Shown piece by piece: positions 4,622 to 62,106 of a stretch of DNA of 64,000 nucleotides (positions are counted from its first letter, which is position 1; the number at the start of each line of letters is the position of its first letter). Position numbers and translations under genes: made by a program. Origin of the DNA: Escherichia coli (GTDB lineage Bacteria > Pseudomonadota > Gammaproteobacteria > Enterobacterales > Enterobacteriaceae); NCBI RefSeq assembly GCF_016903815.1, contig NZ_CP069973.1; one strand, given 5' to 3'. Below the pieces are notes generated by a model. That model was not told the DNA's origin and searched no databases. It saw nothing but the letters and a program-made list of their open reading frames with translations.

Positions 4622-5923
4622 ATGAAACGGACAATGCTCTATCTTTCTCTGCTGGCTGTCAGCTGTAGCGTCAGCGCCGCAAAATACCCTGTTCTGACAG
4701 AAAGTTCGCCAGAGAAAGCAGGGTTCAACGTCGAACGGCTTAACCAGATGGATCGCTGGATAAGCCAGCAGGTGGATGCCGGTTATCCCGGCGTAAACCT
4801 GCTGATTATTAAAGATAATCAGATTGTGTATCGCAAAGCCTGGGGAGCGGCGAAAAAGTACGATGGCAGCGTATTGATGGAACAGCCTGTCAAAGCCACC
4901 ACCGGGACGCTGTATGACCTGGCTTCCAATACCAAGATGTACGCCACTAACTTTGCTCTGCAAAAGCTAATGAGCGAAGGCAAGCTGCATCCTGACGATC
5001 GGATTGCGAAATATATTCCGGGATTTGCCGATAGTCCAAATGACACCATCAAAGGCAAAAACACGCTGCGGATTTCTGACCTGCTGCATCACAGCGGCGG
5101 TTTCCCGGCGGACCCACAATATCCGAATAAAGCGGTCGCGGGCGCGTTATATTCCCAGGATAAAGGCCAGACGCTGGAGATGATCAAGCGCACGCCGCTG
5201 GAGTATCAGCCCGGCAGCAAGCATATCTACAGCGATGTCGATTATATGCTGCTTGGATTTATCGTCGAGTCGGTTACCGGTCAGCCACTTGACCGCTATG
5301 TTGAAGAGTCGATTTATCGCCCGCTCGGCCTGACGCATACGGTGTTTAATCCGCTACTGAAAGGCTTTAAACCGCAACAAATTGCCGCCACGGAACTCAA
5401 CGGCAATACCCGCGATGGCGTGATCCATTTCCCGGATATCCGCACCTCCACTCTCTGGGGTCAGGTGCACGATGAAAAAGCCTTTTATTCGATGGGCGGC
5501 GTTTCCGGGCATGCAGGGTTGTTTTCCAATACCGGCGATATTGCGGTGTTAATGCAAACGATGCTGAACGGCGGCGGCTATGGCGATGTGCAGTTGTTCA
5601 ATGCAGAAACGGTGAAGATGTTCACCACCAGCTCTAAGGAAGATGCCACTTTTGGCCTTGGCTGGCGCGTGAATGGTAATGCCACCATGACGCCGACGTT
5701 TGGCACGCTGGCAAGCCCGCAAACCTACGGTCACACTGGCTGGACCGGGACGGTGACCGTTATCGATCCGGTGAATCATATGGCGATTGTGATGTTAAGC
5801 AACAAGCCACATTCGCCAGTTGCCGATCCACAAAAAAATCCCAATATGTTCGAAAGCGGTCAGCTACCGATTGCAACTTATGGTTGGGTAGTTGATCAGG
5901 TGTATGCGGCGTTAAAGCAGTAA
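4622..5923 (+). CDS. yfeW: Penicillin-binding protein 4B / beta-lactamase-fold protein YfeW
   Basis: ORF track 4535..5923; start trimmed to ATG 4622 (MKRTMLYLSLLAVSCSVSA signal peptide); SxxK motif (SNTK) present. Confidence 0.88.
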   Translation: MKRTMLYLSLLAVSCSVSAAKYPVLTESSPEKAGFNVERLNQMDRWISQQVDAGYPGVNLLIIKDNQIVYRKAWGAAKKYDGSVLMEQPVKATTGTLYDLASNTKMYATNFALQKLMSEGKLHPDDRIAKYIPGFADSPNDTIKGKNTLRISDLLHHSGGFPADPQYPNKAVAGALYSQDKGQTLEMIKRTPLEYQPGSKHIYSDVDYMLLGFIVESVTGQPLDRYVEESIYRPLGLTHTVFNPLLKGFKPQQIAATELNGNTRDGVIHFPDIRTSTLWGQVHDEKAFYSMGGVSGHAGLFSNTGDIAVLMQTMLNGGGYGDVQLFNAETVKMFTTSSKEDATFGLGWRVNGNATMTPTFGTLASPQTYGHTGWTGTVTVIDPVNHMAIVMLSNKPHSPVADPQKNPNMFESGQLPIATYGWVVDQVYAALKQ

Positions 5924-5933
5924 TAATAAATAT

Positions 5934-5957
5934 CCTCCGGCATAGCCGGAGGTTTTT
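5934..5957 (+). terminator. Putative rho-independent terminator after yfeW (could alternatively lie inside the right end of the IS200-like element)
   Basis: Stem cctccggc / gccggagg with 3-nt loop followed by TTTTT, 10 nt after yfeW stop. Confidence 0.55.
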
Positions 5958-6033
5958 CAAATGCGCCTATAAGGCTCTCTTACCAGCCGCGCCCTAACAG
6001 GCGCACACGATCTGACATTTGCATCCAACTTCG

Positions 6034-6492
6034 TTACTTACGGCCCGTAAACGGGCTGCCCGGATAGGGAATCGATAACTGCTCTCCCATTTTATCCTCT
6101 TCAAGCTGGTGCTTTATGTAATCCTGTATCTTCGCCGTGTTCTTACCCACCGTATCGACGTAGTACCCTCTGCACCAGAACTCCCTGTTCCTGTATTTGA
6201 ATTTCAAATCACCAAACTGCTCGTAAAGCATCAGACTGCTTTTCCCTTTCAGATATCCCATAAAGCCGGATACGCTCATTTTGGGCGGGATCTCCACAAG
6301 CATATGGATATGATCTGCACAGCATTCAGCTTCCAGAATCCGTACACTTTTCCACTCACACAGCTTTCTCAAAATACTGCCTATTGCTCTACGCTTCTCT
6401 CTGTAGAACACCTGTCTTCGGTATTTTGGCGCAAAAACTATGTGATATTTACAGTTCCATCGGGTGTGCGCTAAGCTCTTTTCGTTCCCCAT
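6034..6492 (-). CDS. tnpA: IS200-type transposase TnpA (Y1 HUH family, 152 aa)
   Basis: ORF track 6034..6543; start trimmed to ATG 6490-6492 (MGNEKSLAHTRWNCKYHIVFAPKYRR...); HUH motif HIHML and C-terminal YY; near-identical to recalled Salmonella IS200 TnpA. Confidence 0.9.
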   Translation of the reverse strand: MGNEKSLAHTRWNCKYHIVFAPKYRRQVFYREKRRAIGSILRKLCEWKSVRILEAECCADHIHMLVEIPPKMSVSGFMGYLKGKSSLMLYEQFGDLKFKYRNREFWCRGYYVDTVGKNTAKIQDYIKHQLEEDKMGEQLSIPYPGSPFTGRK

Positions 6493-6632
6493 TGGGACCC
6501 CCTTTTGATTTCTTGTTTGACACTTGCAGTTGCCAGACCGCAAGGTGTTTTAACAAATCAAAAGGGGTTTTAATAACTGGCTTAAAGCTGAAAGCTTTCC
6601 GGAACCCCCAGCCTAGCTGGGGGTTTTCTGTG

Positions 6633-6668
6633 CACAAAAAGGCCAGTCAGTTGTGATACTGGCTGGCC
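6633..6668 (-). terminator. Putative rho-independent terminator after yfeX
   Basis: Minus-strand hairpin ggccagccagt...actgactggcc followed by TTTTTGTG, about 25 nt after yfeX stop. Confidence 0.6.
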
Positions 6669-6691: not shown

Positions 6692-7675
<984 letters not shown>

Positions 7676-7686
7676 TCAGACGCAAA

Positions 7687-8262
7687 TTAACGCCGCCAGA
7701 TAATTTTACTGACTTTCCAGTTTTTCAGGGTATCGTCCGAAGGCATTAACCCTTCAGGACCACTCCATTCCCCGCTGAACTGGTAGCTAATATGTTGACT
7801 GCCTTCGGCTTTACATTCGACGGCACGATTATCATCACCATCAGCTTTTTGGCAATTGCCAAATGCTTTGCTGTAAAGGTCGCTAAACGGTGTACCGATT
7901 TTAACACTGGAGTCAGCTGGAATATCGCTATCCAGCACATCAATGCGGCTGATCGTGCCCTGATCGCCGTTAATCACCATCGCCACGTTGTCGCCTTTCA
8001 TCACTTCAAAAAAGCGCACCACGTTGCCGTTCGCGGTTTTCATTCCGCTGCGCAGGCGATAATCGCCATCAAGCGCATCAGCAATGGCTTGTTCTTGCAG
8101 TGGTGTGGACGCCGTTAATTCACCAACGCCCTGCTCGCTCACTTTGGTGGACGACCCAAACCAGTTCCACGGGTTAGCGGCAGACCAGTTAACTGACGAC
8201 ATCGTGGAACAGCCGGTCAGCATCAACGGCATAGCGCATAACATTAAACGCAGCGATATCAT
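7687..8262 (-). CDS. yfeY: Lipoprotein YfeY (191 aa)
   Basis: ORF track 7687..8262; lipobox LTGC in signal peptide. Confidence 0.88.
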   Translation of the reverse strand: MISLRLMLCAMPLMLTGCSTMSSVNWSAANPWNWFGSSTKVSEQGVGELTASTPLQEQAIADALDGDYRLRSGMKTANGNVVRFFEVMKGDNVAMVINGDQGTISRIDVLDSDIPADSSVKIGTPFSDLYSKAFGNCQKADGDDNRAVECKAEGSQHISYQFSGEWSGPEGLMPSDDTLKNWKVSKIIWRR

Positions 8263-8322
8263 GTCACTTCCTTTGGTTATTCAATAACGTTGCTTGGAGT
8301 GCAAATTCACCAAAAAGTGCCG

Positions 8323-8772
8323 TTATTCTTTTTCTTCATTAAAACAAGCGCGTAAACGTCGATTGGTCAGCAGCCAGATTAACGCCACAATATCCGCCAC
8401 TACCAGCGCCAGCCCGATACCGCTAACGGATTAACCGTTCAGCCACAGCCACGGTTGCCAGCAAAGTAAAACCACCTGCGCCAACAGCAACAGAAAATAG
8501 AGCACATGCCAGATACGGGGAAATGAAGCCCGCCGACCACTCAGCAAAAACGCCAGCACCGCCGGAATGCCGGGAATCAACCCCAGCCAGAAATTATCGT
8601 GATCGGGATAAAACAGATTTAGCAGTGCAGTACCCTGCTCGCGCGACGCACCGGCAATGACAAACAGCACCCAGGTTCGCGCCTGAAGCAATAGCACAAG
8701 CCAGAAGAGCAAGGGTAAACGCAGGCGACCGTGCGCATCATAATGGACAGGATGAAACTCAGTACTCTTCAT
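8323..8772 (-). pseudogene. yfeZ: Inner-membrane protein YfeZ interrupted by an in-frame TAA (stop at 8431-8433); 35 further sense codons continue in frame to a second stop at 8323-8325
   Basis: ORF track 8431..8778 (115 aa) ends ...CWQPWLWLNG*; the next in-frame codons read SVSGIGLALVVADIVALIWLLTNRRLRACFNEEKE*, which matches the recalled C-terminus of the ~149-aa K-12 protein (GAA to TAA at one position). Confidence 0.6.
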
Positions 8773-9184
8773 CTTCAATCAAACGCTTACCCAAACTCAG
8801 CACGTCGGCGTGTTCATATCCCAGGCGTTCATACATTCCGAGCACCATGTCGTTATCTTCCGGCACGTTGATCTGAATTTTCGGGCAGCCGCGAGCAATC
8901 AGCTTTTTCTCCAACCGATTAAGCAACGCATTGGCAATCCCACGCCCACGAAACTCTGGATGCACGCCAAGATAATAAGCAGACCCGCGATGCCCGTCAT
9001 AACCGCCCATCACCGTTCCGACCACTTCACCGTTTACCTCAGCGACCAGAAACAAACTGACGTCATGGTTCATCTTACGCTCGATGTCCATTTCCGGATC
9101 GTTCCACGGACGCAGCAAGTCGCAACGCTCCCAAAGGGTGATGACCTCTTCGAAATCTTCCTGGCGAAATACGCGTATCTCCAT
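8759..9184 (-). CDS. ypeA: GNAT-family acetyltransferase YpeA (141 aa)
   Basis: ORF track 8759..9295; start trimmed to ATG 9182-9184 ([11 protein letters not shown]...); 3' end overlaps yfeZ start. Confidence 0.88.
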
Positions 9185-60945: not shown

Positions 60946-61700
60946 GTCCAGTGCTTACGCAACATGTCAGCCAGCCCATAACGCTGGACGAGCAAACGCA
61001 AAAGATAAAGCAGCATTTGCTACAGGATATCCGTCGCTCGGCTTACGTTTATCGCGTCGATTGCGGCGGCTGCAACGCCTGCGAAATCGAAATTTTTGCC
61101 GCCATCACACCCGTATTCGACGCAGAACGTTTTGGCATTAAGGTTGTTTCATCACCACGTCACGCCGATATTTTGTTATTTACTGGCGCAGTCACCCGAG
61201 CGATGCGTATGCCTGCACTTCGGGCATATGAGTCTGCCCCCGATCATAAAATCTGTGTTTCCTACGGCGCGTGTGGTGTCGGCGGCGGTATTTTCCACGA
61301 TCTCTACAGCGTCTGGGGCGGCAGCGACACCATTGTCCCCATTGATGTTTGGATCCCCGGCTGCCCGCCAACACCGGCCGCCACCATTCACGGTTTCGCC
61401 GTGGCGCTCGGTTTGCTGCAACAGAAGATTCACGCGGTGGATTATCGCGATCCCACCGGGGTGACCATGCAACCGCTGTGGCCGCAGATCCCGCCATCAC
61501 AGCGTATCGCCGTTGAGCGAGAAGCGCGGCGGCTGGCGGGCTATCGTCAGGGGCGAGAAATTTGCGATCGGCTCCTGCGCCATTTAAGCGACGATCCTAC
61601 AGGAAATCGGGTTAACACCTGGTTGCGCGAAGCTGACGATCCGCGTCTCAATAGTATCGTTCAGCAACTCTTTCGCATTCTCCGGGGGTTACATGGCTGA
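60942..61700 (+). CDS. hyfI: Hydrogenase-4 [NiFe] small subunit HyfI (252 aa, NuoB-like)
   Basis: ORF track 60942..61700. Confidence 0.92.
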
Positions 61701-62106
61701 GGAGTGCAGGGAAATTGTTTTCTGGACGCTGCGAAAAAAGTTTGTCGCCAGTAGCGACGAGATGCCGGAACACAGCTCTCAGGTAATGTATTACTCGCTG
61801 GCTATCGGTCATCACGTTGGCGTGATTGATTGCCTGAGTGTCGCCTTCCGCTGCCCACTGACGGAATACGAAGATTGGCTTGCACAGGTCGAAGAGGAGC
61901 AAGCCCGACGTAAGATGCTGGGGGTGATGACCTTTGGTGAGATTGTTATTGACGCCAGCCACACCGCCCTGTTGACCCGGGCATTCGCGCCACTGGCAGA
62001 TGACGCGATGTCGGCGTGGCAGGCGCGTAGCATTCAATTCATTCATCTGTTGGATGAAATTGTGCAGGAACCGGCCATCTATCTGATGGCCAGAAAAATT
62101 GCGTGA
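61693..62106 (+). CDS. hyfJ: Hydrogenase-4 component HyfJ (137 aa, HycH-like maturation factor)
   Basis: ORF track 61693..62106. Confidence 0.9.

Follow-up and report, generated by a model that had tools for sequence, protein, structure and literature searches.

Does the yfeZ gene of this Escherichia coli chromosome carry a genuine nonsense mutation and, if so, what does the cell lose with it? The question was raised by a stretch of 64,000 nucleotides (referred to below as the window, its first letter being position 1), in which the yfeZ reading frame, on the minus strand, is interrupted by an in-frame TAA at 8433-8431 (local sequence ...TGG CTG AAC GGT TAA TCC GTT AGC...). Beyond this triplet, 35 sense codons (SVSGIGLALVVADIVALIWLLTNRRLRACFNEEKE) follow in frame up to the usual TAA at 8325-8323, just as a preliminary description of this DNA had read it. 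The description also placed the premature stop after 115 codons. The stop is indeed present, but the count depends on the start: 115 codons are obtained from the TTG at 8778, where the mechanically called ORF 8431-8778 begins, and 113 from the ATG at 8772, which RefSeq annotates as the start on identical or near-identical DNA. With the latter start, the truncated product is 113 amino acids (aa) long, versus 149 aa for the intact protein. Coordinates of the gene, of its two parts and of the neighbouring features are collected in Table 1.

Table 1. Features of the yfeZ region (window coordinates)
Feature	Position	Strand	Basis
Full yfeZ frame, 149 codons and stop, broken at codon 114	8323..8772	-	RefSeq CDS coordinates transferred
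Premature ochre codon TAA (ancestral GAA, Glu114), next base T (TAA-T)	8431..8433	-	Sequence comparison
Remaining ORF, 113 codons, predicted TM1-TM3	8434..8772	-	Translation; Pfam profile match
Orphaned 35 sense codons, predicted TM4 (about residues 116-136) and basic cytoplasmic tail, no second mutation	8326..8430	-	
ypeA (GNAT acetyltransferase), upstream; stop overlaps the yfeZ ATG by 14 nt	8759..9184	-	RefSeq annotation
yfeY, downstream lipoprotein gene, intact	7687..8262	-	RefSeq name 'RpoE-regulated lipoprotein'
Candidate sigma-E-like promoter (GGCACTT-N16-TCCAA), after the normal end of yfeZ and ahead of the yfeY start	8294..8321	-	Pattern match

Intact relatives of this gene have a sense codon at the interrupted place. 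In MG1655, yfeZ (b2433, NP_416928.4) has 149 codons, of which the 114th is GAA (Glu), and encodes a putative inner membrane protein of the DUF2919 family (PF11143). This is the same gene, in the same ypeA-yfeZ-yfeY-yfeX synteny, and its DNA is 98% identical to the window; apart from codon 114, the two proteins differ by five amino acids (S83T, I87T, H89R, N145Y and E147V). The preliminary description was right in giving K-12 a protein of about 149 aa with GAA at this position, a single G-to-T change away from the window. The K-12 tail ends in ...CFYEVKE and not in ...CFNEEKE. Strain 3426, whose yfeZ is intact (WP_001296281.1), has a single difference with the window in 601 bases, and this difference is the first base of codon 114. 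Strains 1579 and AR_0015 likewise have the ancestral C at plus-strand position 8433, where the window has A. We also aligned 25 orthologues from Escherichia, Citrobacter, Salmonella, Enterobacter, Lelliottia, Kluyvera, Kosakonia and other genera: column 114 was E in 20 of them, S in 3, D in 2, and a stop in none. Reference YfeZ proteins do not end at ...WLWLNG, as they would if the short form were the ordinary one; the orthologues are 149 aa long. Given GAA in the relatives and no stop among the orthologues, TAA is the derived state, and was reached by one G-to-T transversion. The gene of the window thus has an in-frame stop where its relatives have a sense codon, in a frame that is otherwise kept.

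As the difference is a single base, an error of sequencing or assembly has to be considered, in which case the true base would be G and yfeZ would be intact. A 61-base query centred on the TAA found an exact match in seven strains (222, 103, 2779, 5283, 98210, 98192 and 98224) out of the 5,426 complete E. coli genomes. Sources of these carriers were urine in Boston, and blood in Houston and in Alexandria (Egypt). RefSeq marks yfeZ as a pseudogene with an "internal stop" in all seven. Strain 222 (NZ_CP020516.1, A9P13_RS07320) and the six others match the window exactly throughout the yfeZ region, with the stop at the same codon and the same genes on either side. RefSeq annotation of identical DNA thus already lists the allele as a pseudogene. 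In a 15-billion-protein collection, the exact 113-aa product was also present on 115 further public contigs (171 index blocks) across NCBI, ENA and Logan; among these are assemblies whose accession prefixes are Japanese, a further NCBI assembly and one metagenome scaffold. With seven complete genomes from at least three cities and these 115 contigs, the allele occurs in independent isolates, as a heritable allele should, and the recovery of the same base across independent projects effectively excludes a sequencing error. Moreover, the change is a substitution and not a homopolymer indel, and the genomes that have the TAA also have a second, independent marker of the clade, in hyfJ, described below. 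We therefore consider the chance of an error to be negligible.

The carriers are closely related to one another. Direct comparison of strains 103, 2779, 5283 and 98210 with the window over 28,463 bp gave no difference save for one extra IS200 in 2779. Over the first 25 kb, strain 98192 has exactly the sequence of the window, and at least 39 other complete genomes have 1 to 2 mismatches with it; these others include none of the seven TAA carriers. One of these near-identical genomes, WCHEC96200, has been published as ST405, phylogroup D, and another is labelled O102:H6. We infer that the host background is ST405-type, judging from near-identity to WCHEC96200 rather than from MLST typing.

The other end of the window permits a finer placement of the event. 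Over 45-64 kb, six genomes are identical to the window, namely five carriers and AR_0015, the sole genome with an intact yfeZ in this identical set. At position 61886, within hyfJ (plus strand, 61693-62106), the window has A, and strains 7/2 and 1579 have T; the change is non-synonymous and switches the HyfJ accession from WP_001521037.1 to WP_100190773.1. The derived A is common to all seven TAA carriers and to AR_0015, the one genome with intact yfeZ in which it was found (98210 and 2779 each have one private SNP besides). A rare hyfJ SNP common to all carriers, in a near-invariant background that keeps GAA, points to one recent origin of the stop, by the evidence of one marker SNP within 64 kb rather than of a genome-wide tree. 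The simplest history would then be that the hyfJ change came first, and that the yfeZ stop arose afterwards, once.

The IS200C copies of the region add a complication. The window has one copy between yfeX and pbp4b (5922-6641, with tnpA at about 6034-6492, minus strand). A second copy is found between yfeY and yfeX, at the same site (7605-7609), in AR_0015, which is intact for yfeZ, and in the carrier 2779, the two being identical over 810 bp including the flanks; it is absent from the window and from the five other carriers compared directly at the junction. To account for this pattern, one additional event has to be assumed: the copy was excised precisely, or it was inserted twice in parallel. 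Elements of the IS200/IS605 family normally excise precisely, and if this happened once, later on, the pattern can be fitted to the tree (AR_0015, (2779, other carriers)).

We then come to what the protein loses. YfeZ is mentioned in passing in the literature, in screens, with no function reported. No NCBIfam family model matches it, a PDB search with its sequence gave no match, and a Foldseek search of its AlphaFold model against the PDB returned nothing at E ≤ 0.001. Hydropathy of the protein with Glu114 restored delineates four hydrophobic segments (21-39, 61-79, 87-105 and 116-134), i.e. the putative transmembrane segments TM1 to TM4. Basic residues cluster at the N-terminus, in the 80-89 loop and in the C-terminal tail, a charge distribution that would place both termini in the cytoplasm, and codon 114 in the short acidic periplasmic loop between TM3 and TM4. 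The AlphaFold model computed on the orthologue alignment (mean pLDDT 83.7, pTM 0.73) has helices at 21-42, 58-77, 85-111 and 118-136, a loop at 112-117 and a short helix at 138-144, and its confidence is highest over TM4. The claim that the stop removes the last transmembrane segment, already present in the preliminary description, is therefore borne out both by hydropathy and by the model, as TM4 lies beyond the stop, immediately after the 112-117 loop. The Pfam profile DUF2919 reports the same loss: the restored protein scored 169.4 bits over profile positions 1-145 of 146 (gathering threshold, 27.2 bits), and the 113-aa product 137.5 bits, still above threshold but over positions 1-111 of 146 only, so that the profile is no longer covered as a whole.

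Could the 113-aa product nevertheless be a stable three-helix protein, which keeps its activity or acquires a changed one, so that the allele would encode a variant rather than a null? The first 113 residues are the more conserved part, with 42% of invariant columns against 25% in the deleted tail, and they suffice for the 137 bits obtained with DUF2919. Furthermore, the allele persists worldwide, and a stop at Glu114 has arisen independently on a K-12-type background (one contig, see below). Against this stand the orthologues from other Enterobacteriaceae genera, which among the best 120 matches listed are almost all 149 aa long (a few have 145-164 aa) and keep TM4. In the alignment of 25 orthologues, the 36 deleted residues contain the invariant positions G118, D127, A130, W133, L134, T136, R139, A142 and F144; TM4 thus has an invariant intramembrane Asp, in addition to the highest confidence of the model. 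Finally, losing one helix flips the C-terminus across the membrane, and RefSeq treats the gene as a pseudogene. A functional variant is in our opinion unlikely. From the conservation of the deleted part, we infer rather that yfeZ function is lost, the three-helix remnant, with its C-terminus in the periplasm, being probably mis-assembled or inactive.

Full-length YfeZ would still be made if the premature stop were read through or suppressed, a possibility to which the 35 downstream codons, free of any further mutation, lend some appeal. However, an intact tail is also explained by a young mutation, as the carriers are identical over 28 kb. Termination in E. coli is most efficient at TAA-T, the context of this stop, which makes readthrough unlikely. 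None of the 25 aligned orthologues has a stop at column 114, so this is not a conserved recoding site. Production of the full-length protein by this route is scarcely credible.

Re-initiation, giving a separate C-terminal piece, was also considered and rejected: the only in-frame candidates are GTG codons (125 and 129) located inside TM4, and no ribosome-binding site is visible there. On the opposite strand, the G-to-T change creates the palindrome TTAA within 8428-8436, and hence a TAA on the plus strand as well. It terminates the mechanical antisense ORF 8294-8434, which bears no sign of being a gene.

The neighbourhood of yfeZ has the standard E. coli order, with hemF and amiA on one strand and ypeA-yfeZ-yfeY-yfeX on the other. 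The candidate promoter of Table 1 was detected with a sigma-E-type pattern. With one mismatch allowed, the match at 8321-8294 is the single one in the 64-kb window; since this count is not above chance, the argument lies in its position. It is on these grounds that yfeY very probably has its own promoter. With a promoter of its own, and only about 105 nt of yfeZ mRNA newly untranslated, little polarity on yfeY is expected. Some other E. coli strains have an insertion of about 146 bp within the ypeA-yfeZ-yfeY segment, which splits the match into two pieces. The match to yfeZ in strain STECUZB006 is interrupted (two places, 73% coverage).

Is the allele itself responsible for the success of its carriers? 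Under this explanation, inactivation of yfeZ would have been positively selected and would have helped the ST405 sublineage to spread. The blood and urine infections that yielded the carriers do span three continents, and other lesions of the gene exist. A 131-aa frameshift allele (P0020) is present in 45 contigs of the public collection, and a second, independent Glu114-stop on a K-12-type background (P0031) was found in one 4.54-Mb contig. In Shigella flexneri, yfeZ is called as a 5′-truncated gene (P0030). Further forms (P0008, P0026 and P0046) are a 176-aa protein with a 27-aa internal tandem duplication, a 154-aa stop-loss and a 235-aa protein. In addition, one experimental-evolution study lists yfeZ among putatively beneficial genes, although its authors cannot conclude to a benefit for that group.

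Several observations speak against adaptive loss. The allele is present in only 7 of the 5,426 complete genomes, and the evidence fits a single origin. Among complete genomes, the same stop was not found on a K-12-type background, and the large collection gave the one contig mentioned above; these searches thus lend no support to recurrent selection, nor do we see a sign of convergent selection on yfeZ. The other disrupted alleles affect the same gene, but they are sporadic lesions, caused by different mutations or in different backgrounds, and are rarer than the allele of the window or unrelated to it by descent. They are also rare beside intact yfeZ, which is found in more than 1,000 contigs of the public collection. 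Such a pattern would be expected from hitchhiking in a successful clone. Given that a stop would result from 55 of all the 1,341 single-base changes that yfeZ can undergo, an occasional nonsense allele carried along in this way is unremarkable. Persistence of the allele over three continents tells us that it is not strongly deleterious, and is equally compatible with a selective benefit. Overall, we find positive selection of yfeZ inactivation quite improbable. The more specific proposal that the Glu114-stop is non-neutral, loss or remodelling of YfeZ conferring an advantage in fitness or drug tolerance by which the ST405 sublineage spread between continents, has in our view a slighter chance still. 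If it were true, the allele would not only mark the clade but also amount to a natural experiment on the role of YfeZ.

We conclude that the yfeZ stop is very likely the result of one recent G-to-T change (Glu114 to stop) in a sublineage of the ST405-type clone, inherited clonally, that yields a probable null allele, near-neutral and with little effect on yfeY. The scenario would be as follows. The GAA to TAA transversion would have arisen once, recently, in this sublineage. Translation then stops in the short, predicted periplasmic loop after TM3, and the fourth helix, with its invariant intramembrane Asp127, is lost together with the basic tail. The three-helix fragment, whose C-terminus would end up across the membrane from its normal place, would most likely be non-functional or degraded, making the carriers natural yfeZ knockouts. 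The allele would be neutral or nearly so, and its spread would be that of the clone, with no selection acting on the allele itself. Expression of yfeY would be little affected, thanks to the sigma-E-type promoter of its own that is predicted after the normal yfeZ stop. In this scenario, the mutation and the state it derives from, its inheritance and distribution, and the part missing from the protein are established by the data above, whereas loss of function, neutrality and the lack of polarity on yfeY are our reading of them.

The yfeZ stop allele leaves known biology unchanged, and its value is mostly practical. The yfeZ SNP cleanly marks one sublineage within a global, multidrug-resistance-associated ST405-type clone, and the hyfJ SNP at 61886 is a second marker for the same sublineage. 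Because the carriers were isolated from bloodstream and urinary infections, the C-terminal quarter of YfeZ is dispensable in the human host, and the protein as a whole probably is too. Finally, the carriers and their closest intact relatives, such as AR_0015, make up a ready natural knockout pair for work on DUF2919.
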